Shown piece by piece: positions 8,493 through 59,280 of a DNA stretch of 64,000 nt (positions are counted from its first letter, which is position 1; each line of letters begins with the position of its first letter). Under the pieces are notes generated by a model. It saw only the letters and a program-made list of their open reading frames with translations, made no database searches and was not told the origin of the DNA. The translations under genes were made by a program, and so were the position numbers. Source of the stretch: a phage; sequence record PZ151149.1. The stretch is one strand, 5' to 3'.

Positions 8493-8520
8493 CAACTTTT
8501 TTCAAAAAAATTTAGGCAAT

Positions 8521-8548
8521 AAAAAAGCCACTCCGAAGAGTGGCTTAT
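8521..8548 (-). terminator. rho-independent terminator
   Basis: Hairpin AGCCACTC-TTCG-GAGTGGCT then TTTTTT on minus strand. Confidence 0.65.
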
Positions 8549-11961: not shown

Positions 11962-12552
11962 TTACTTTCTAAATGCAGGGTGCATAGCTTTAATACCTTC
12001 CACTCGCTGACGATCCGCCGCCTGAATTGCTGGGCGAGGAACGATCAGTTGACCATCACGTTCAATGCTCATTGTTTTAAATGGAAGAATTGCAGTACAC
12101 ACCAGAGATTCATGCATGTCATCGGTGTATGTTAACTCAAGTTCCCCCAATTGTGAACACCAACAACCATAAAAGTTAAAGGTGCATACAATGTTACGGC
12201 GTTCATTGTCCAGCATGTGAACTTGAACGGCTTCCGGCATTGAATCCTTCCACGCGGTGGAGTTACCGTTATTGTAGTCTACTATAGAAAGCATCCATGT
12301 GTAAAGGTTTAGATAGCTTTCCAAATGCTCATCGACAATAAACCGGACTACCAACGGGTCAAACTCTACATGACTGGAAGGATAATCAGCGACCGCCAAA
12401 CCATATTGACCAGCAACTTGTTTAGTCGGTGGAATGGTTATAGCCGGAAGTGTAACACCTTGACAGTTTAAAGTAAAGCCTTTTGTTAGTTGACCATCTG
12501 GAATGGCAATCTGCCAGTTGCTAGGGTTAGCATAGTTAAAGAGATTGGACAT
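11962..12552 (-). CDS. 3: tail completion / sheath stabilizer protein gp3-like
   Basis: Position between genes 1 and 2 as in T4; size close to gp3; identity not checked residue by residue. Confidence 0.6.
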   Translation of the reverse strand: MSNLFNYANPSNWQIAIPDGQLTKGFTLNCQGVTLPAITIPPTKQVAGQYGLAVADYPSSHVEFDPLVVRFIVDEHLESYLNLYTWMLSIVDYNNGNSTAWKDSMPEAVQVHMLDNERRNIVCTFNFYGCWCSQLGELELTYTDDMHESLVCTAILPFKTMSIERDGQLIVPRPAIQAADRQRVEGIKAMHPAFRK

Positions 12553-12582: not shown

Positions 12583-13116
12583 CTAAAAATTTAAACTAGC
12601 ATAATCTCCAAAATGTTCCTTTGCTGCTTCGTCATAAGCCTTTGCAGCATCAACTTCGTCAAGAAAGACGCCCAAATGGACCTTTCTACGATTGATTGAT
12701 ATCTGAGCACACCATTTGTTATTCTGTGTTCTAATCACTCCTTTATACTTACTCTTACAACCATCAAGTTTTCCGCGATTGAATGCATTTTCCTGAGAAG
12801 TGGATTCTCTCAAGTTATCCGGTGCATTATTTTCTCGGTTTCTATCTATATGGTCGATCATTTTAACTTGCGTACCATGTTCAAGATACCAAACAACCCT
12901 ATGAACTTTAATGACCAAAGAATAGCCATCACTGCGCCAAAACTTAAAACATAGATAACCTCGACTATTTTTATAAACTTTAACCGGGTCTCCTGCCTTA
13001 TACCATCGACCATTCTTTCCACTATCTTTCAAATGGTACAATATACCATTAACGTGTTTATACTTATCTCTAATTTCTTTTTGTGTAAAATCATCCCACA
13101 TCTTAAACCCAGACAT
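12583..13116 (-). CDS. HNH homing endonuclease with C-terminal AP2 DNA-binding domain
   Basis: HNH motif IDHIDRNRENNAPDNLRESTSQENAFN; AP2-like YKGVIRTQNNKWCAQISINRRKVHLGVFLDEVDAAKAYDEAA; inserted between genes 3 and 2. Confidence 0.7.
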   Translation of the reverse strand: MSGFKMWDDFTQKEIRDKYKHVNGILYHLKDSGKNGRWYKAGDPVKVYKNSRGYLCFKFWRSDGYSLVIKVHRVVWYLEHGTQVKMIDHIDRNRENNAPDNLRESTSQENAFNRGKLDGCKSKYKGVIRTQNNKWCAQISINRRKVHLGVFLDEVDAAKAYDEAAKEHFGDYASLNF

Positions 13117-13152
13117 ACATTTTCTCCTGATAATATTATTAATAACAACATC

Positions 13153-13182
13153 AATCTAACATATCTAGTATATAATGTCAAT
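13153..13182 (-). promoter_or_regulatory. possible sigma70-like promoter (TTGACA-N18-TAGATT) for the AP2-HNH gene
   Basis: Hexamers on minus strand; 18-nt spacer. Confidence 0.35.
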
Positions 13183-13232
13183 TGTCGCTTTGCGACGTGC
13201 CGTAGGCACTGACTACTTTTTAACCGAAACAA

Positions 13233-13267
13233 ATTTTCTATATTCTAAAGATCTTTCTTCGTTTTGG
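13233..13267. repeat. intergenic repeat copy A (ATTTTCTATATTCTAAAGATCTTTCTTCGTTTTGG)
   Basis: About 33 of 35 nt identical to 50186..50220; contains palindrome AAAGATCTTT. Confidence 0.6.
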
Positions 13268-13336
13268 TTATGTTTTAACCAATAACTATATTTTTATACA
13301 GTAATAAATAAAACTGGTACTATACGAGGACTTCTT

Positions 13337-13591
13337 ATGACAGAAGACATTTTGTTAAAACTCTATGATCGTTTGGATAACGAATTAGCAACATTGCGGG
13401 GTGAAGTTCTCTATTTGTCTAAATGCAATACAGATCTGATTAAGCAGATTGCCGAAAGGGATGACCAAATAAAATCCCTTTCAGGCGCATTACGTGATCG
13501 CGACAAGGCATTAGAGATTTTACAGCGTGTAACCAATAAAGAAGAGTTGAAAGACTTTCTACATGGTTATGCTCACGCCATCGATCTATAA
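13337..13591 (+). CDS. hypothetical coiled-coil protein (84 aa)
   Basis: ORF with GAGGA RBS; heptad-like charged sequence; followed by strong terminator. Confidence 0.5.
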   Translation: MTEDILLKLYDRLDNELATLRGEVLYLSKCNTDLIKQIAERDDQIKSLSGALRDRDKALEILQRVTNKEELKDFLHGYAHAIDL

Positions 13592-13592
13592 T

Positions 13593-13622
13593 AAAAAGCC
13601 CGTCAATGACGGGCTTAATTTT
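13593..13622. terminator. bidirectional rho-independent terminator
   Basis: Hairpin AGCCCGTC-AATG-ACGGGCT flanked by A-run and T-rich run; convergent genes on both sides. Confidence 0.6.
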
Positions 13623-14649
13623 AATATGTATCAGCTAATTTAATTATGTTATCAAGTTCCGTGATTGGTAAAGTTTCTGTGTATCCATCTTTCAACATGG
13701 ATTTATCAACAACGCCACAATGATAAGTTCTCTTTATTTCCTTTTCAAGTTCCCACGGAATCCAGCCATCAACACTTTGTTTGACGTAAACAAGTTTGTG
13801 AACAAACTTAGATTTCTGCATATGTTGTTTCATTCTGGTTTCCGGTAATTCATTGGTTACACCAAACTTTATAAATTTATCATCTAACGTCTGGATATAA
13901 AAATATCCCATCTCAGATGGACGATAGCCAGAAGAACTACATTTCGGACACCCTTTAGCATTTCTGTTGAACGTACAATATCTTACAGAAAATTCGGCGT
14001 CATGTTTTGTACATTTAAGTTTTATCCATGAATTTGCAGTACCTATCCATTCACCATCGACACCTATATATTCATACCCTAACTTTTTACATTTATCTTC
14101 TATTCTAGATAGTGCATCTTCCACGGGAACGACATATTCCGTCTTAAATTGTTCAGCCGCACATTTCTTACAACCACATGTACCATGATTTTTAAAATCA
14201 AAGAACTTTGTATTCTTCCAAATATGGTCATGTTTCTTGCATCTAAGAATCATCTTAGTAATTTGTGATTTCCAGCCACCAACAAATCCCAAAAATTCAT
14301 AATCAAGATCTTTACATTTTTCTTCAATGAATTTGGTTGCTTCATCTTCTGTCATAACTCCCCTACATTGAGGGCAACCAACAATAACCTTTTTAGCATA
14401 GAAACTATTACTGGAAACATCATAGACAGTTCCATGCTTATTGCATTGGATAACAGATCTAGTCAATTTTCCTTTCCATTCTCCAGTAAATCCTAAGAAT
14501 GTATGGTCGACAAGTTTACATCTTTCAATAACTTTATCTGCAAACTCTCTAGGAGATTTTGTTACCTTGTTTACTCTGTATTCTATTTCTTCCGGTTGAC
14601 GAAGATCATAAACGTGGGGATTTCTCCCCACGGAATTAATATTAAGCAT
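13621..14649 (-). CDS. putative endonuclease-like protein: three tandem Cys-containing repeats plus C-terminal GIY-YIG-like (T5orf172-like) motif
   Basis: Three roughly 85-aa repeats each with FLGF.GEWKG...C.KH...W...GC..C pattern; C-terminal GYFYIQ...KFGVT...R..H resembles a GIY-YIG core; ATG at 14649 just after gene 2 stop. Confidence 0.5.
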   Translation of the reverse strand: MLNINSVGRNPHVYDLRQPEEIEYRVNKVTKSPREFADKVIERCKLVDHTFLGFTGEWKGKLTRSVIQCNKHGTVYDVSSNSFYAKKVIVGCPQCRGVMTEDEATKFIEEKCKDLDYEFLGFVGGWKSQITKMILRCKKHDHIWKNTKFFDFKNHGTCGCKKCAAEQFKTEYVVPVEDALSRIEDKCKKLGYEYIGVDGEWIGTANSWIKLKCTKHDAEFSVRYCTFNRNAKGCPKCSSSGYRPSEMGYFYIQTLDDKFIKFGVTNELPETRMKQHMQKSKFVHKLVYVKQSVDGWIPWELEKEIKRTYHCGVVDKSMLKDGYTETLPITELDNIIKLADTY

Positions 14650-15463
14650 CTTTCCACACCTTCCTTGCATCATAGTTTTTACCTTTAGAAACAAATTTAT
14701 ATGTGTTAAGGTAGATAATATTGCTCCAGTCTTTCGGGCTAATCTCAACAAGTTTTGTTTTAATGTGTCCCGGTAGATATGCTTTGATCATGTGGTCACT
14801 ACCACGCATACCTTTTACATCACTCCATTTAATCTTCAAGCGTGTTTTATTGCTCAAGGTAGGAGTAGATGCATATTGCTTTAAAAGTGCTTCCAGAAAC
14901 TGCTGACGGGCTTTAGGCGTTACATAGTGTAAGTTAAGACCCAGCATTACAGTATTACCCGCCTTTGTCTTAGAATCACCCAGACAAATGATCAGCGGGA
15001 AAACATCCCAATATGGCAAAGTATCTTTATACTTCGCATCATACATAAAGGTATAGATTCGCCCTACTTGCGGTTTTACAATCTGGTGTCCCTTTATTCC
15101 AGCTTTTATTGTTTTAGTAAACCACTCCTGTGATTTTTCTTTAGGACGACTCTTTGATACAGCACGCATAGACGCACGAAAATCATTAATCATCATCATT
15201 GCGCGTTGCTGCTTATTGAGACCCTTTGCACCTTTCCCTTTTAGTTTTTCAACTTCTATTGCTGTTTTAATTTCGCTGGCATAACGAGACATACTTTTAG
15301 TGAAAGTCGCATAGGCTATTCCCTTAGAATCTGCAAATGCTTTAGCTGTCATTCCTTTGGCTTTTGCTTTCGCAAATTCTACACCCAATTCGACCCACTG
15401 TTTAGACTTTCGCTTTTGGGGAGACGGCTTTTCGTCTTCTGTGATTATTTCAAATACGCTCAT
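14642..15463 (-). CDS. 2: DNA end protector protein gp2
   Basis: 273 aa from ATG at 15463 (T4 gp2 is 274 aa); basic N-terminus; position between gene 3 side and gene 4 as in T4. Confidence 0.7.
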   Translation of the reverse strand: MSVFEIITEDEKPSPQKRKSKQWVELGVEFAKAKAKGMTAKAFADSKGIAYATFTKSMSRYASEIKTAIEVEKLKGKGAKGLNKQQRAMMMINDFRASMRAVSKSRPKEKSQEWFTKTIKAGIKGHQIVKPQVGRIYTFMYDAKYKDTLPYWDVFPLIICLGDSKTKAGNTVMLGLNLHYVTPKARQQFLEALLKQYASTPTLSNKTRLKIKWSDVKGMRGSDHMIKAYLPGHIKTKLVEISPKDWSNIIYLNTYKFVSKGKNYDARKVWKDA

Positions 15464-47995: not shown

Positions 47996-48078
47996 GTTTA
48001 TTTTGGAATCCTTCGGATTCCTTTTTCTTTTTGTATAAATATGATATATCCATTAAGGCAAATACAGGATTCATAAAC

Positions 48079-49320
48079 ATGACTCATATTTTTACTGAAC
48101 TGTTGCGGGAATCTACTTCCTCAGTAGCTAACCAGACAGCGCGACCGCAACTATTATCATTAACTCGCGCGGTAAACAACCTGATTTTCTCTGATCTGGT
48201 AGCAATCCAGCCAACGGATCAACCAGTATCTGCATTGTACGGCCTACGTTATCTTAACCGTGATGGTCAGATGACTTTCCGAACTGCTACAACCTATGGT
48301 GGCGCGGCTGGTGATCGCACAGAGATTGAAGAGTTTTCAAAAGAAAAATCTTATAACGAAGGCGCACTATTCAAATCAGACGATGTTGTATACGAAGTTG
48401 TGACCGCTGGTACAGTCGGTGAAGATGCCGAAACTCCAGAAGCTGCAATCTTTAAAGGCATAATGACAAACAAAATTCGTTTCTATAGCGATTGTGCATC
48501 GGTAGAATACTTTGAAGATAAAAACACCGAAATTTCGTCTACCTCTATGCAGTTTGATAAATGGCAGGTTAATGTAGGTTCTCGTAAACTGAAAACCTCA
48601 TTCACGACCGAATTGATGCAGGATCTTGAGGCAAGCCAAATCAACTCTGAAAACTCTGTAATTGATCTTCTGGCTACTGTTGCTTCCGAAGAGATCAACA
48701 AAGATATTATTCAGAAGTTGATCACTGTATCATCTCGCTATAAAATTAAAGGGATCACCCCTGATGGCGTACTTTCTCTCGTTAGCGTTCAGGATGCACC
48801 AACACAAGCGCGTGAACTTTACCGCTATGCTTGCGAAATGAGCAATCAAATGTTGCGGACTTCCTCCTTTGCTGGTACATACGTTTTGGCGTCTTCTCGC
48901 GTGGTTGGCCTCCTGCAATCTACCGGATGGATGGAAGAAACCGACAATGCTCTAAGCGAAGGTCGTCTACGTTGCGGTCTGGAAGTGTACGCAGACACGA
49001 CAACACCTTTCGATTATATGCTCGTTGGTTGTAAGCACATGATCGGTGATATGGAGAGTGTAGGTTCTCTGTTCTACTCCCCATATACAGAAGCCGACGG
49101 CGCTGGCGCGTATAAGAGTGTAATTGACCCTAATAGCTTCCAGCATCATGTAGCTATTATGAATCGTTATTCACTCTCTGTCAACCCATATACATCAAAA
49201 GTTGATCAGGAAGAACACCAGGTCATCAAGGGTGACGATTGGGGTAAAATGGCTGGACGTTCAGAAATGTCCTACATTTTAGGAATCGAACTGCCACCGC
49301 TTGAGATTGACAACGCTTAA
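48079..49320 (+). CDS. 24: capsid vertex protein gp24
   Basis: Match to T4 gp24 from ELLREST onward; start at ATG 48079 rather than track start 48031. Confidence 0.9.
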   Translation: MTHIFTELLRESTSSVANQTARPQLLSLTRAVNNLIFSDLVAIQPTDQPVSALYGLRYLNRDGQMTFRTATTYGGAAGDRTEIEEFSKEKSYNEGALFKSDDVVYEVVTAGTVGEDAETPEAAIFKGIMTNKIRFYSDCASVEYFEDKNTEISSTSMQFDKWQVNVGSRKLKTSFTTELMQDLEASQINSENSVIDLLATVASEEINKDIIQKLITVSSRYKIKGITPDGVLSLVSVQDAPTQARELYRYACEMSNQMLRTSSFAGTYVLASSRVVGLLQSTGWMEETDNALSEGRLRCGLEVYADTTTPFDYMLVGCKHMIGDMESVGSLFYSPYTEADGAGAYKSVIDPNSFQHHVAIMNRYSLSVNPYTSKVDQEEHQVIKGDDWGKMAGRSEMSYILGIELPPLEIDNA

Positions 49321-49907
49321 CTAAATATCTAACCAAGACAAGTCAGATCCGCCCAAGATTTTTTCGACGGCGGATCTATTTTCTTGATGATATAAGTTAA
49401 AACATGGTATCCCATGTCTACGGGCAACATAAACAGCAATTCTAGTTCCTCCCGAAACGATTCCATTAACTTCTTTCGCCCAAAATAACACACAATCTAC
49501 AGGATCATCAAGTGTCTCACCTAAGACTTGAGCAACATTTCTAGAAAACAGATTTTGCATGTATAACGGTATAGAACGAGGATTATCATAAACGTGTTCT
49601 AATTCATCCATCGCCAGATTTTTTGTTCTAAGGTTTGCCATGCAATAACATCATGACCGTTATGCTTGTGGTCATAAAACTTCCAATTTGGAATGAAAAT
49701 TTTTCTATAATCTGGATCGTAATACTTCATGAAAGCATTGTCCATACCGTAAGCCCCTCCAGAATGCGCTACAACGCGATTTTCTGACAATACCCTCCCA
49801 ATGGTACTAGCCATTATCAAAATGTCGCTAGGCGCTTTTCTAGAGCCTATTAAAGCACATCTACGAAGTGGTTTTACTCCAAATAGATCTTGTAACTGGT
49901 CAAACAT
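49321..49907 (-). CDS. DprA/Smf-like Rossmann-fold protein, split into two overlapping reading frames at an A6 run (frameshifted, possibly pseudogene)
   Basis: N half ALIGSRKAPSDI...AHSGGAYGMDNAF and C half IVSGGTRIAVYVARRHGIPCFNL together resemble one DprA/Smf-type domain; track ORFs 49599..49907 and 49321..49641 overlap around AACAAAAAATC. Confidence 0.45.
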
Positions 49908-50044
49908 AATATTTCCTCCATAGAAAGCAATATCATACTACAAGTTAATAACAAATACAAGTATCCGCGTAGCGGAAGCGAGCACAGCGAGCAATAAAAC
50001 ACTTCCAGTAATTGATTAATAAATGTTCGAAACAAATTTTTATT

Positions 50045-50100
50045 ATTCTATAAGATAAGTCTTCGTTTTGATCATAATTTAATCATACATGTAAAAACTA
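50045..50100. repeat. intergenic repeat copy C (core CTTCGTTTTGATCATAATTTAATCA)
   Basis: 25-nt core identical to 50210..50234; 149 bp spacing. Confidence 0.6.
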
Positions 50101-50185
50101 CACAAAAGGATATCGCTTCGCGAACTCCTACGGAGTATAACATTTGTGTTACAATATGTAGTGAGTAATAATTAACCAAAGATAC

Positions 50186-50245
50186 ATTTTCTATGTTCTA
50201 AAGATCTTTCTTCGTTTTGATCATAATTTAATCAAACAGTATTAA
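50186..50245. repeat. intergenic repeat copy B (ATTTTCTATGTTCTAAAGATCTTTCTTCGTTTTGATCATAATTTAATCA)
   Basis: Combines the copy A segment and the copy C core. Confidence 0.6.
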
Positions 50246-50286
50246 TATTGTGCACATGTAAACTAAAATTATGTTAATAACATATA

Positions 50287-50313
50287 CAAAAAAGCCGCCC
50301 AGAAGGACGGCTA
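50287..50313 (-). terminator. rho-independent terminator after 50321..50758
   Basis: Hairpin AGCCGTCC-TTCT-GGGCGGCT then TTTTTT on minus strand. Confidence 0.6.
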
Positions 50314-50320
50314 ATGTTAA

Positions 50321-50758
50321 TTATTTGTTGATAACGATCTGATTTCGGCGAATGGTAACATTACTCTTAGAGATGATCAGATCATCCGGCACGACGTTAG
50401 TTTTGTATGGTTGGAAGCGAACAAGCATCTGATTGCGTTTAGACCCTTCCTTAATCTTGATCTCCATCTGGATATTGTTGCCTACGTGAGCAACCGCAAT
50501 TTCACCTTTATTCTCATAGACCCACTTGATGGTAACGTCTCCAGCAAAAGCCTTAATAACTTGCAATGCTTCGTCGTATGCGGTAGAGCTGTGAACTTTC
50601 AGAAGTCCAGCCGTAGCAAGACGGGAGCAGGTGATCGCCGGAGATTGCCAAACATCAACATTAATTTGCTCAATCAGAGTAACACCGCCCTGATCAACTG
50701 CTTTGAATGCTTCGAACATTGCCTTTTTCATTGCTACGTGGTTTTTACGGAATTTCAT
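50321..50758 (-). CDS. hypothetical protein (145 aa)
   Basis: ORF; followed by rho-independent terminator. Confidence 0.5.
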   Translation of the reverse strand: MKFRKNHVAMKKAMFEAFKAVDQGGVTLIEQINVDVWQSPAITCSRLATAGLLKVHSSTAYDEALQVIKAFAGDVTIKWVYENKGEIAVAHVGNNIQMEIKIKEGSKRNQMLVRFQPYKTNVVPDDLIISKSNVTIRRNQIVINK

Positions 50759-50804
50759 AATTAGTCACCTCTATTGATTAGTTATTCAGAATATTAATTA
50801 CAAA

Positions 50805-51080
50805 TCAGGACATTGCCCGTTTGAATGCGTCCATTATAACAGTGTTATTTGGCTTGTCAACACGTTTTTGAACTTTATTTTTAAATTTTTTGTTGATGTG
50901 GTGTTTACGATAAACAACCTTTTCACGGCTGGCGTAAGCCTCGCGTGCATCTTTTACCATCAACCATGCCTTAGCCGCATCTTGTCCGCTGATCCCGCCA
51001 ATCTTTTTAGCAATATCAACAAAATTAAGACCGTGGTCTTCGCGTAGCATGTAAACCATTAACGCTGTTTTCTTGTCCAT
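50805..51080 (-). CDS. small basic protein with helix-turn-helix-like segment (91 aa; long form would start at 51188)
   Basis: LNFVDIAKKIGGISGQDAAKAW resembles an HTH; Lys-rich C-terminus; start ambiguous. Confidence 0.4.
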   Translation of the reverse strand: MDKKTALMVYMLREDHGLNFVDIAKKIGGISGQDAAKAWLMVKDAREAYASREKVVYRKHHINKKFKNKVQKRVDKPNNTVIMDAFKRAMS

Positions 51081-51277
51081 CACTTCGCCCCATTGACGAT
51101 TAACAGGATAGTGATCAGTACCGGAAACTGGATCATGACAGTACCAAAAAACCGGATAAACGCATTTTCTGATTTCCATACATGACATGCGACTAGCTGA
51201 TAGACCATTGTTGCAACCAAAGCCAGAAAATACATCTCGATTGGTGTTTCTTTGATCAATCGTACAATCTCATTCAT
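51080..51277 (-). CDS. small membrane protein (65 aa)
   Basis: ORF with GAGGTGA RBS, downstream of sigma70-like promoter; hydrophobic. Confidence 0.45.
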   Translation of the reverse strand: MNEIVRLIKETPIEMYFLALVATMVYQLVACHVWKSENAFIRFFGTVMIQFPVLITILLIVNGAK

Positions 51278-51403
51278 ACTTCACCTCATACATTCATAAA
51301 CACAACAACGAATAATACAGTAACAGTTATCAACGCCATTTTCAACCCCACATTCATAATATTTTCTTCGCCTCACTATGACAGTAGCATGTCGATGCGT
51401 GCC

Positions 51404-51431
51404 ATTATAGGCATCTAAATAGCTCTGTCAA
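51404..51431 (-). promoter_or_regulatory. sigma70-like promoter (TTGACA-N16-TATAAT) for the module downstream of hoc
   Basis: Consensus hexamers on minus strand right after the hoc terminator. Confidence 0.55.
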
Positions 51432-51451
51432 GCACTAAAAACAAAAAAGCC

Positions 51452-51476
51452 ACCCCGAAGGATGGCTGATAGATTT
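51452..51476 (-). terminator. rho-independent terminator after hoc
   Basis: Hairpin AGCCATCC-TTCG-GGGTGGCT then TTTTTTGTTTTT on minus strand. Confidence 0.65.
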
Positions 51477-51478
51477 CA

Positions 51479-52693
51479 TTAAGCAGGATGCGTTTCACGA
51501 ATGCATAGAACTCGCTCTAACGTATCTCGGTCCAGTTTATGTAAATCTTTGGAATGATACATGAAACCATTGCGAGATTCCATGCAAGTGCAATCACTAT
51601 ATTTTTCTTCCGCTGCCGCGATTGTCTCCAGATCTTTGGCGTACTTGCTGGTAGAATAAACTTCTCGGTCACGCCACTCTAACCCAGCCTCATTGAATTT
51701 AACAATCTCGTCAAATACCCACCATCCAATGTAGATAAATGAAGTTTTGCGCCACGGGATCGGGTGTACGTAACGAAACATTTTAACAACTTCAATGGAA
51801 CATTTTCTGCTTGTACTTGCTGCAACTTCTACTGTTTCATTTTCGATCTGTTGATATAGTTTAGCAACACACCAGAATTTGGCTGTGTCATCGTAAGTAG
51901 CACTCTCTTTGAACAGATGACCGTCTGGAGTGATAGAAAATCCTTCCAGTTCTTCGCCGTCCTCACTACCGATTAGAGTCGGTGACAGTTGCCCTTCGCG
52001 CTGCAAATACCAGTTATGTTTGATCGTCAATTCAGGCATACCGCTAGAATCGCCTACAATGTCCTCTGACACAACATAATTAAGTAAGATCTCATTACCT
52101 AGTGCCACGGTCTTTGATTCCACCACATCCTGATCTACGTTCATTGTTGCCAGCATGATTTTAGTCGATGCGCTATTGGCTGAATTTTCCGACTCACCCC
52201 ACACTTTTACAGTATACACGCCGTTTTTATCTGCTGTAAATTTTTGGATTGTAGTATTCTGTTTTGTGTCTATAACTTCTTCGCCCTTACTCCAACTATA
52301 ATGTAGTTCATAGTTGTCTGCTGGAGTCTTCCCACCCGAAAATTTTACTGTTGCATGTAATTCTACGTCTTTTTGTGATGATACGTAGAAATGCGGCGGT
52401 TCGGTGATATTTACGATTAATTCCGCTTCTTCCATGAGGAAAACTTCAGATTCTACTGATTCCGTCGTATCGGTATCTTGTACCGTTACTTTATAGCTAC
52501 CCGCATTTTCACTTGTTGCGCCTTCTACAGTTAGCGTAGCTGTGCTATTTTCATGCGGTTTGTCGTCTTTTGTCCATGTATATGTCAAATTGCTGGGTAA
52601 TGGTTCGTCACCCTCTACAGTCGCCGTTAAGGTGAAACCATCGCCAGCAAGAAAACATCTTTTGTCAGATTTAATTGATACTGTGAAAGCCAT
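51479..52693 (-). CDS. hoc: Hoc-like outer capsid decoration protein with Ig-like domains
   Basis: Repeated Ig-like segments (YTWTKDDKP...ATLTVEGATSENAGSYKVTV); position after gene 24 as in T4; terminator immediately downstream. Confidence 0.65.
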   Translation of the reverse strand: MAFTVSIKSDKRCFLAGDGFTLTATVEGDEPLPSNLTYTWTKDDKPHENSTATLTVEGATSENAGSYKVTVQDTDTTESVESEVFLMEEAELIVNITEPPHFYVSSQKDVELHATVKFSGGKTPADNYELHYSWSKGEEVIDTKQNTTIQKFTADKNGVYTVKVWGESENSANSASTKIMLATMNVDQDVVESKTVALGNEILLNYVVSEDIVGDSSGMPELTIKHNWYLQREGQLSPTLIGSEDGEELEGFSITPDGHLFKESATYDDTAKFWCVAKLYQQIENETVEVAASTSRKCSIEVVKMFRYVHPIPWRKTSFIYIGWWVFDEIVKFNEAGLEWRDREVYSTSKYAKDLETIAAAEEKYSDCTCMESRNGFMYHSKDLHKLDRDTLERVLCIRETHPA

Positions 52694-58193: not shown

Positions 58194-59280
58194 TGTCTCA
58201 ATAAAACTTTATCAGGATTATGAGGCATTTCTAAATCATCGCTTTATAGAATTGGGTGCTACCTTTGTTACAATGACTCTGCGTGATTCGATTCGTGGGG
58301 TGAACGAAGGATTGTTGCAATTCTATGATAATAAGGCGATGCATACAAAATTAAATGGACGAGAGATCATTCAGATTTCGCTATCCACTGCTAATACAGA
58401 TGAAGTGTTTAACCGAATCTATGGGATCTCTCATAGTAATGTAACGATTGACCAAAAATCTGACAACATTTTAACATTCCAGTTAAAGAGCTATCACGAA
58501 ACACTAAACCTTAAATTTTCTCGCTCATTAACAAATAACGCTGTTAATAACGTAACTAGCATGATCGATGCCATCTATAAGGAAGTTCCTTTATGGAAAC
58601 CTACTATAAAGGGTGATAACGTTGTTATTCCTCGTTGTCCGTGGGTTAGTACCATAAATGACTATATGGATTTTGTTAGGGCATACGGGCAAAGCGTAGA
58701 AACCGAGTCTTTCGTGTATTGCTGGGAAGATTTTGATGGTATAACGATCGCTGGACACGATACAATATTAAAAAATGAGCCAATACCAGCTATAATCTGT
58801 GAGCCTAGACTCATGGGGCAATTTATTGATATGTCGCCTAATCTGATGGTTTTTAATTTCGAGTGGCAGACTAAGAGCAATGCTAAAGTTAAAAATTCAT
58901 TTAGCAATGTGACATACACAACTATTGATTTTGTTACTAAGCAGTATAATAAAATTGTTGTTGGTAATGGGGATAATATTGCACACTTTGCTCATGGTGG
59001 CGCTTATGGTAATTTAACTTATAAGAATGCGTTTTTGGAAGGTTCTAAACTTGCCACAATAGAACAATATGATTCATATGCTACCGCAGTGTGTCACGGT
59101 AATTTTTCGTTGCGACCCGGTATTGTTATTCGATTCTTTGATGAGAAGCAACAAGCACGCAATGATTTTATTGTTGACGAAGTGGTGCATGAAATTAGCC
59201 GAGAGCAATCATTAACTCACCTGTATATGATCGGTAACAGCGAAGAATTACAGGAAGTCAAATTTGAAGGTAAGATATAA
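58171..59280 (+). CDS. 27: baseplate hub protein gp27
   Basis: Synteny, size 369 aa. Confidence 0.85.
   Translation: MQRTGFPNVSIKLYQDYEAFLNHRFIELGATFVTMTLRDSIRGVNEGLLQFYDNKAMHTKLNGREIIQISLSTANTDEVFNRIYGISHSNVTIDQKSDNILTFQLKSYHETLNLKFSRSLTNNAVNNVTSMIDAIYKEVPLWKPTIKGDNVVIPRCPWVSTINDYMDFVRAYGQSVETESFVYCWEDFDGITIAGHDTILKNEPIPAIICEPRLMGQFIDMSPNLMVFNFEWQTKSNAKVKNSFSNVTYTTIDFVTKQYNKIVVGNGDNIAHFAHGGAYGNLTYKNAFLEGSKLATIEQYDSYATAVCHGNFSLRPGIVIRFFDEKQQARNDFIVDEVVHEISREQSLTHLYMIGNSEELQEVKFEGKI

Follow-up and report, generated by a model that had tools for sequence, protein, structure and literature searches.

The DNA considered here is the phage sequence record PZ151149.1, analysed as one stretch of 64,000 nucleotides (nt), hereafter the window, to which all coordinates refer unless another genome is named. 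The window phage is a Krischvirus, i.e., an RB49/JSE-like T4-type coliphage: a megablast search with positions 48000-52000 returns 59 phage records, all of them Krischvirus (RB49, JSE, phi1 and relatives), at 94-99% identity. The elements under study are two repeat units, B and C, which occupy a spacer of about 413-431 bp (49908-50320) between a 145-amino-acid (aa) open reading frame (ORF) and a DprA-like gene. The whole spacer is unbroken in 59/59 Krischvirus records, with 95-99% identity. An empty site was not found in more distant relatives, the 145-aa protein being confined to the same 59 records. The ORFs contained in the spacer measure only 23-53 aa and have poor starts; a coding role of the units was rejected on that ground.

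The 25-nt core CTTCGTTTTGATCATAATTTAATCA reported in the original prediction is indeed found twice on the + strand, 149 bp apart from start to start, and no third match is found in the 64 kb with up to 3 mismatches (0.01 expected). The similarity between B and C covers 38 nt without gaps at 89% identity (50052-50089 and 50201-50238) and about 90 nt when gaps are allowed (nhmmer E 1e-18 to 1e-21). The segment ACATGTAAA said to follow each core is present (50087 and 50254; 3 occurrences in the window vs. 0.6 expected), but at unequal offsets, i.e., 2 and 20 nt past the core. The palindrome AAAGATCTTT had been assigned to the first copy, B; it belongs in fact to the second one, C, and to a third copy of the window, A, while B reads TAAGATAAGT at this place. 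The term «tandem» is also inappropriate since the copies are dispersed direct repeats and not head-to-tail ones. Terminator-like hairpins do lie on both sides of the pair, both scored on the - strand (Table 1). Two features had been overlooked: two adjacent triloop hairpins between the copies, and a direct repeat (16/17 positions) around the whole array.

The hairpin pair reads C-GAA-G / C-GTA-G on the - strand, followed by TATCCTTTTGTG. The fold of 50095-50165 is more marked on the - strand (-19.9 kcal/mol, z = -3.76) than on the + strand (z = -1.67). The bracketing repeat, TTGTAT(T/A)TGTTATTAAC on the - strand, matches at 94%, with about 0.002 expected by chance within 430 bp according to our own estimate, and both of its members directly follow a hairpin. 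The junction sequence (hairpin + TTGTATnTGTTATTAAC) is duplicated on both sides of the B-C array. The terminator of the 145-aa gene is annotated in several relatives and corresponds to the RB49 TransTerm site 97821-97838; the A-run on its other side makes it potentially bidirectional.

B and C belong to a small family. A profile of the three window copies (A, B and C) gives no further match in the window. The whole RB49 genome has exactly four copies, three of them in the window and all intergenic; the fourth is D. B, C and D are antisense to the surrounding co-directional genes. In this family, the units are framed by hairpins: GC-rich triloops, single or paired, stand on one side, and the other side is closed by a hairpin or terminator, except that none stands directly after A; a bidirectional terminator is located at 13596-13616, after the 84-aa ORF that A precedes. 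The original prediction linked the pair to the DprA-like gene, as a regulatory repeat located upstream of it between terminator hairpins. The repeat is conserved, looks regulatory and lies in the spacer of that gene; however, it is not specific to it, since other copies precede the 84-aa ORF (A), separate gp35 from gp36 (D) and occur in an Escherichia coli prophage. Moreover, the best promoter geometry of the units points away from the DprA-like gene, whose own promoter-like site is nearer. This latter site is not flagged by a strict consensus scan and is not among the published RB49 early promoters.

The prophage copies came to light in an exact-pattern scan of IMG/VR: besides the Krischvirus copies, it gave about 25 contigs of ~35 kb, having a core of 60-75 nt in common with the phage units. 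Over a 75-nt core, the identity between phage units and E. coli prophage is 75-86%. The motif occurs in 56-58 of 5426 complete E. coli genomes and, within E. coli genomes, is confined to that prophage. In strain ETEC1703 the prophage is inserted in ycdX; it encodes a large serine recombinase, and its head genes are lambda-like. Two divergent genes of the prophage enclose a non-coding region of 1.4 kb, and the motif is found there, with a 150-aa ORF 118 nt downstream of it. The matches of two IMG/VR pattern scans are limited to Krischvirus and this one prophage family; the motif was not found in plasmids, nor in GenBank phages beyond the 59 Krischvirus records. TGAAAGGnATT sites flank the prophage motif as an inverted pair. 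The pair TGAAAGGTATTGGTAT / ATACCAATTCCTTTCA was considered as the ends of a miniature inverted-repeat transposable element (MITE) and rejected, because the sequence that forms this pair recurs nearby as direct repeats.

A second allele of the core exists on both sides. In divergent prophage alleles (EC416, STEC1575) the flanks are kept and most of the core is replaced. A search with the DprA-like protein led to L172 (IMG/VR 3300005711_000029), a 10.7-kb Krischvirus-like contig (87% protein identity) that has a two-unit array between the same genes as B/C, with a different core. Over 67 nt this core matches the STEC1575-type prophage allele at 85% identity, and it matches none of the other alleles. 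Each of the two core alleles is thus common to one lytic and one prophage lineage. In L172 (region 940-1300), the putative promoters directed antisense have the consensus TATAAT, a bidirectional terminator (AAAATCCGAAGGATTTTT) stands between the two units, and about 190 extra bases separate the array from the DprA-like start.

Other DNA is common to the two phage groups. A stretch of 387 nt of RB49p262 (RB49 158303-158689, L162; outside the window), a gene for a 252-aa protein with a weak LprI domain match, is found at 94-97% identity in some prophage members (contigs L010, L015, L019, L021, L029 and L032). As judged from the sequences, this identity indicates that a gene has recently passed between a temperate phage and a lytic T4-type one. 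A 26-nt terminator hairpin, ATAAAAAAGCCACTCCGAAGAGTGGC, is identical in the window (8519-8544) and in the ycdX prophage (contig L035, 11257-11282), and constitutes a second regulatory piece of DNA common to both groups; in RB49 it occupies 58712-58737 and immediately precedes a predicted strong early promoter. A shared trans-acting protein was also looked for: the prophage ORFs adjacent to the motif have no RB49 homologue, and the sole shared gene, RB49p262, is 4-8 kb away. Annotation of the neighbouring prophage and phage proteins with Pfam, PHROGs, NCBIfam and PDB gave nothing useful.

The non-coding region of the ETEC1703 prophage (L035 7993-9378) contains seven ATTTTTGCCCCTGAAA iterons with a spacing of ~21 nt, plus an inverted copy, as well as ACTAGATGAT and TGAAAGGnATT repeats. 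The 15-nt TATAAATAATAGTGA stands in inverted orientation before both divergent genes. This region probably serves as origin, as control region or as both in an uncharacterised siphophage with a serine recombinase.

Around copy A, a homing-endonuclease-like gene with HNH_3 and AP2 domains (12583-13116, - strand) lies between gene 3 (11962-12552) and the unit; it is absent from RB49 and JSE. The corresponding insertion (12584-13178) has its junction inside CAATTG, abutting the hairpins of A, and this junction creates a promoter-like TTGACA-17-TAGATT (13181 to 13153). The interval from the 84-aa ORF to gene 2 holds a gene for a 376-aa endonuclease (13621-14751, - strand; CapR homology domain, PHROG 681), which is present in JSE and absent from RB49. 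Copy A and its ORF are therefore flanked here by two mobile nuclease genes.

Absence of the repeats from relatives had been named as a ground for refuting the original prediction; it is not observed, both copies being kept in 59/59 records. Among these 59 genomes, no indel is observed at B/C and no copy has been lost by recombination between the repeats. Variability was counted on an alignment of 11 genomes. The cores and hairpins (50013-50085, 50104-50146 and 50177-50237) have 4 variable columns out of 177, i.e., 2% (respectively 1 column, 0/43 and 3/61), in blocks that were chosen post hoc, after viewing the data; the hairpin on the left of B has none. The comparison values are 22% for the rest of the spacer, 84/1025 for the flanking genes and ~20% (48/242) for third codon positions. 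With boundaries fixed a priori (50010-50100 and 50160-50250), 8/91 and 11/91 columns are variable, which is close to the 8% of the flanking genes. A test independent of the choice of blocks compares the paralogs: columns identical in all four vary among genomes in 5 cases out of 94, vs. 23 out of 118 for the other columns (p = 0.002). In phage G2248, B and C have diverged independently, which speaks against ongoing homogenisation.

The high-affinity consensus of the host protein Fis is GNNYAWWWWWTRNNC (PMC3302801). The imperfect palindrome of the core, TTGAT-N9-ATCAA (TTGGT-N9-ACCAA in A and D), matches this consensus. The window contains 7 matches vs. 4.5 expected, of which 4 are in the B/C spacer (50014, 50070, 50163 and 50219), i.e., two in each unit, 56 bp apart. 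RB49 has 12 matches vs. about 11 expected, and 6 of them fall in the four units, which represent 0.25% of the genome. L172 has 7 matches in 3.6 kb vs. 0.2 expected, 6 being in the array, with site sequences that differ from those of B/C. The consensus is AT-rich and degenerate, one L172 match being merely the TATAAT region, and the prophage copies fall 1-2 positions short of its strict form; the clustering is thus a strong lead and not a proof of Fis binding. Clusters of Fis sites are known in the upstream activating regions of stable-RNA promoters and in the enhancers of DNA invertases. The units resemble these classical clusters by their 2-3 predicted sites at a fixed spacing beside a promoter-like core, and differ from them by the 56-bp spacing and by the positions relative to either candidate start.

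In the + direction, the geometry TTGnnn, 16-17 nt, TA.... is found at the same position in A, C, D, the prophage copy and L172 (Table 1). In B the -10 is lost, since GTAAAA stands there. An ORF follows closely in two copies only, A and the prophage one, and in both it lies in the + direction. On the - strand, CAAAACGAAG is invariant ahead of TAGAAT, at 12-13 nt in A, B and D, with no -35; C reads TAGAAC, and the spacing from CAAAACGAAG to the -10 is not kept in L172. A new promoter class was rejected because the combination of CAAAACGAAG and TAnnnT occurs only in the four RB49 copies. The TTGAT-N9-ATCAA hairpin pairs alike on both strands (84% and 87%, with one compensatory event) and so does not tell the strand. 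From the sequence, transcription in the + direction has about an even chance and transcription in the - direction appears rather unlikely; the two are not mutually exclusive.

Table 1. Features of the B/C spacer and of the related units, with the hexamers read in the + direction of each unit (spacer length in nt).
Feature	Position	Strand	Elements and remarks	-35	Spacer	-10
DprA-like gene	start 49907	-	other side of the B/C spacer, directly after gene 24
Promoter-like site of DprA-like gene	49932-49960	-	TTGTAT 49960-49955, 17-nt spacer, TATGAT 49937-49932; read from sequence
Bracketing direct repeat, left member	49944-49960	-	TTGTATTTGTTATTAAC (49960-49944) = first 17 nt of the promoter-like site of the DprA-like gene
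Hairpin left of unit B	49964-49976	-	GC-rich triloop TCCGCTACGCGGA then T-rich tail; terminator-like scan
Unit B	50010-50100	+	Fis-consensus site L 50014-50028; ATTCTA 50045-50050 (TAGAAT on - strand); core 50061-50085; TTGATC 50068-50073; Fis-consensus site R 50070-50084; GTAAAA 50091-50096	TTGATC	17	GTAAAA
Triloop hairpin pair	50113-50123; 50124-50136		TCGCTTCGCGA; ACTCCTACGGAGT; between B and C
Unit C	50160-50250	+	Fis-consensus site L 50163-50177; GTTCTA 50195-50200 (TAGAAC on - strand); AAAGATCTTT 50200-50209; core 50210-50234; TTGATC 50217-50222; Fis-consensus site R 50219-50233; TATTAA 50240-50245	TTGATC	17	TATTAA
Bracketing direct repeat, right member	50273-50289	-	TTGTATATGTTATTAAC, directly after the terminator of the 145-aa gene
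Intrinsic terminator of 145-aa gene	50293-50312	-	AGCCGTCCTTCTGGGCGGCT then T-run
145-aa ORF	50321-50758	-	one side of the B/C spacer
Copy A with hairpins	13184-13292	+	GTCGCTTTGCGAC 13184-13196; GTGCCGTAGGCAC 13197-13209; ATTCTA 13242-13247; AAAGATCTTT 13247-13256; CTTCGTTTTG 13257-13266; TTGGTT 13264-13269; TATATT 13287-13292, 45 nt upstream of 84-aa ORF 13337-13591	TTGGTT	17	TATATT
Copy A, unit	13205-13290	+	between gene 3 and 84-aa ORF, points toward the ORF
Copy D	outside the window	opposite	between gp35 and gp36	TTGGTT	16	TATAAA
Prophage copy				TTGATG	17	TATGAA
L172 unit 1				TTGCTT	16	TATAAT
L172 unit 2			scored 10/12	TTGATT	16	TATAAT

The searches for known signals were negative for the units. 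The strict consensus scan flags neither B nor C; the rebuilt early-promoter profile has no match in the units at E up to 1000, and A, B/C and D are free of the 51 early promoters that Nolan et al. (2006) predicted in RB49. No transcriptome literature was found for Krischvirus. With Rfam 15 at E up to 10, sub-threshold matches were obtained on the terminator only (best 21.6 bits vs. a gathering score of 95), and ARAGORN finds no tRNA in the window; a structured RNA family or a tRNA/tmRNA was rejected on this basis. A canonical site is present nearby, i.e., a perfect TTGACA-16-TATAAT with an upstream TG, which precedes the 145-aa ORF (50833-50860, - strand). It is the counterpart of the published RB49 early promoter Pe:98401 and contrasts with the non-canonical units.

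The closest known elements are the promoter-early stem-loops (PeSLs) of RB49 and phi1, made of a stem-loop, AT-rich DNA and a sigma-70-type promoter (Arbiol et al. 2010, PMC2839356), and described later in other T4-like phages too (Comeau et al. 2014, PMC4122927). Promoter and terminator activity in reporter assays (lacZ fusions) belongs to the PeSL description (PMC2839356). In one PeSL subclass the stem-loop is upstream of the -35, and PeSLs were proposed to move and to mediate modular shuffling (PMC2839356). The units are found in the same phage group, are repeated intergenic elements of ~100 bp (four in RB49) and adjoin stable GC-rich stem-loops (49964-49976, 50113-50136, 13184-13209; terminator 50293-50312). 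The bracketing repeat, the insertion junction at the hairpins of A and the exchange with another phage are parallels to the shuffling. PeSLs also mark insertions, deletions or replacements by which related genomes differ; at B/C no indel distinguishes the 59 genomes, while the bracketing repeat, the HNH-AP2 insertion next to A and the replaced core allele of L172 point the other way. On the contrary, the hexamers of the units are not the consensus TTGACA/TATAAT of PeSLs, those of A (TTGGTT-17-TATATT) and L172 (TTGATT-16-TATAAT) being closer. PeSLs occupy mainly hyperplastic regions and have immediately downstream an ORFan with a Shine-Dalgarno sequence and a start codon, whereas the units lie in virion-gene modules and only A precedes an ORF. 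Moreover, the units form their own four-copy sequence family and show no indel polymorphism at B/C in 59 genomes. Since they have no match to the 51-promoter profile, they differ from PeSLs in the defining promoter despite the same build. Identity with a canonical early promoter or with a PeSL was rejected, the search with the GTTGACA...TATAAT profile being negative.

The explanation that we favour, tentatively and with somewhat less than an even chance of being right, is that a small promoter/stem-loop cassette, exchanged horizontally and with a PeSL-like build but of a separate sequence family, is present here as two copies without an ORF, B and C. Such a cassette would comprise one or two GC-rich triloop stem-loops and a conserved stretch of ~70 bp with two matches to the high-affinity consensus of host Fis and a TTGnnn hexamer resembling a -35, at which Fis and RNA polymerase, respectively, may bind. 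The -10 position would come 16-17 nt further on, followed by an ORF or, almost directly, by a stem-loop or terminator. Two cassettes would be complete, namely A, as the promoter of the 84-aa ORF, and the prophage copy with its 150-aa ORF; B, C and D would be empty. Two cassettes would have been inserted in tandem in the spacer between the 145-aa ORF and the DprA-like gene, pointing away from the latter; the array would have entered, presumably by recombination, the original terminator-promoter junction of the DprA-like gene. B would be partly decayed, with its -10 lost, and C would have a weak -10 (TATTAA). At most, the two would give short + strand transcripts stopped at the next hairpin, C possibly yielding a transcript of ~60 nt that ends at the bidirectional terminator. 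The T-rich tails of the hairpins are on the gene-sense strand, and the three successive hairpins would therefore act there as extra stops between the hoc-side genes and the own promoter of the DprA-like gene.

Evidence for exchange comes from (i) the shared core alleles, (ii) the 387 nt at 96% identity elsewhere, (iii) the bracketing repeat and (iv) the homing-endonuclease insertion at the hairpins of A. Also in favour of the cassette explanation are the four-copy family with its unbroken spacer in 59 records, the + geometry kept in place, the ORF direction of A and of the prophage copy, the PeSL-like build in the very phage group of the PeSLs, the low variability of the paralog-identical columns and the clustering of Fis consensus matches. 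Mobile promoter/stem-loop cassettes are already known as a kind in RB49-type phages; what is new is a distinct, non-consensus sequence family, located in conserved modules, with two alleles shared with a temperate phage. The arrangement of copy A also recalls morons, i.e., autonomous promoter-ORF-terminator cassettes inserted between temperate phage genes: A has hairpins, a promoter-like site, the 84-aa ORF and a bidirectional terminator, stands between genes 3 and 2, and is shared with a temperate phage. Unlike morons, B, C and D have no ORF and the phage host of the units is a strictly lytic T4-type one.

Several observations weigh against the cassette explanation. B, C, D and the prophage copy are devoid of the final T of the -10 hexamer, which is nearly always present in sigma-70 promoters; as far as sequence can tell, only A and L172 look like strong promoters. 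No ORF follows B, C or D, which are directed at the 3' end of a neighbouring gene. The best-conserved block (TTCTAAAGATCTTTCTTCGTTTTG and the hairpins) is upstream of the putative -35, and a plain promoter does not explain it. The terminator-like hairpins all carry their T-run on the other strand, the gene-sense one, where A, B, D and the prophage copy also have an invariant -10-like TAGAAT (TATAAT in the prophage variant L024). The profile of the 51 published RB49 early promoters misses all four units on either strand. Finally, gene conversion among the four copies, and not selection, could explain part of the conservation.

The - strand signals underlie another explanation, which we hold to be unlikely on the whole: the units would be short - strand transcription units, and their product would be either an untranslated RNA of 55-100 nt or the leader of gene 3, of the DprA-like gene or of gene 36. 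Their -10 would be TAGAAT (B, 50050-50045; TAGAAC in C, 50200-50195), with the CAAAACGAAG box at about -22 to -31 replacing the -35 and a Fis-type site near -38; an AT-rich stretch of 35-75 nt would be transcribed up to a stop at the triloop hairpins. The conserved block of ~70 bp would then extend from about -47 to +20, i.e., the size of an RNA polymerase footprint, with the variable stretches outside. The invariance of TAGAAT and the TATAAT of L024 agree with this, as do the location of RB49 unit D between two terminator-like hairpins of the same direction with no ORF between them (L162 64-86 and 188-200), the three successive hairpins that part B and C on the - strand of the window, and the fact that A, B, C and D, read in the - orientation, are each upstream of a same-strand gene. 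However, there is no usable -35 (TGATCA, TAACCA, TCATCA) and no extended -10, the last -10 position of C is a C, and the L172 spacing (AAACG, 5 nt, TATATT) differs from the 12 nt found here. The combination of box and -10 is found nowhere else in RB49, the early-promoter profile gives no match, and the nearest prophage gene in the - direction is 1.2 kb off. The origins oriF (uvsY) and oriG (gene 34) of T4 are built in a comparable way, i.e., ~100 bp with a promoter having an activator box at -30 and a sigma-70-type -10, then an AT-rich unwinding element, in or near late-gene clusters and strand switches (PMC3016281). Their promoter is a MotA-dependent middle promoter; RB49 lacks motA as well as middle promoters (PMC1524935). 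By analogy, the four units might be the origin-type elements of MotA-less T4-like phages, of R-loop type, which seems to us very doubtful: a special, Fis-assisted promoter would fire a short RNA into a hairpin-closed AT-rich unwinding stretch, and this RNA would prime the leading strand or open the DNA for early replication, the prophage module serving beside the iterons. If so, the two matched core alleles would reflect an exchanged origin specificity. The resemblance concerns the length of ~100 bp, a candidate sigma-70-type -10 with a conserved box in place of the -35, a putative AT-rich unwinding stretch downstream, the few copies and the location in or near late-gene clusters. Indeed, the four copies occupy three loci, all in virion-gene modules (gene 3/2 near gene 5; gene 24/hoc, ~5 kb from uvsY; genes 35/36, beside gene 34), the promoter part is conserved while the AT-rich part that would be transcribed is free to vary, the homologous prophage copy lies in the 1.4-kb non-coding region with seven evenly spaced iterons, and unit B holds a segment whose duplex stability, -22.7 kcal/mol per 25 bp, is within the lowest 1% of the window. 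On the other side, the AT-rich stretch of C is unremarkable in stability, RB49 has no MotA and the units no MotA box, the units have no sequence similarity to the T4 origins, which are not repeats of each other, the closeness to T4 origin positions is only approximate, and the whole scheme depends on the uncertain - strand promoter.

Two further explanations do without transcription. The units could be functionless, decaying leftovers of recombination, i.e., empty PeSL-type cassettes or a MITE-like insertion, whose apparent conservation would result from the 95-99% identity of Krischvirus genomes and from mutual homogenisation of the copies. The degeneracy of B, where AAAGATCTTT and the -10 are gone, the lack of ORF, Rfam match and canonical promoter, the direct repeat around the array and the variability within the a priori boundaries (8/91 and 11/91, near the 8% of the genes) are in line with such relics. 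Nevertheless 0/59 records have lost a copy, although a direct repeat of 149 bp should be deleted easily in a highly recombinogenic phage; variability in the paralog-invariant columns is about a quarter of that in the other columns, and the cores and hairpins vary at 2% next to third codon positions at ~20% (48/242). The Fis-consensus positions are also kept despite site sequences that differ between copies and alleles, and B and C have diverged independently in G2248; that the units are mere relics is improbable, in our opinion. Those same Fis-consensus positions would be the essential part if the units were architectural sites for Fis, or for a phage protein of similar specificity, which would not start transcription themselves but bend the DNA or act as an enhancer for nearby promoters, recombination or DNA packaging. 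Two matches per unit at 56 bp (three per unit in L172), half of the RB49 matches in 0.25% of the genome, and a palindrome (TTGAT-N9-ATCAA / TTGGT-N9-ACCAA) that is altered on both sides together in A and D are compatible with this. Considering the degenerate and AT-rich consensus, the L172 site that is simply a TATAAT region, the prophage copies off the strict consensus by 1-2 positions, and a most conserved segment lying between the sites and not in them, a solely architectural role is highly improbable.

The consequences differ according to the explanation. If the units are promoter cassettes, the idea of mobile regulatory cassettes in T4-type phages extends to a distinct, non-consensus family in conserved virion modules, and the two matched alleles are direct evidence of a flow of regulatory DNA between lytic and resident phages of one host. 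If they are modules for short transcripts or origins, the origin-dependent start of replication in MotA-less T4 relatives becomes testable on four targets of ~100 bp. In any event, the clustering of Fis consensus matches offers a concrete and cheap test of the use of a host factor by a therapeutic phage genus.

The DprA-like gene itself (49321-49907, - strand) has a T-run at 49618 that is one T short with reference to the 10/10 other Krischvirus genomes compared. By this loss, the 195-aa DprA-like gene is split into two overlapping ORFs, 49321-49641 and 49599-49907. The missing T is either a real frameshift or a homopolymer sequencing error.

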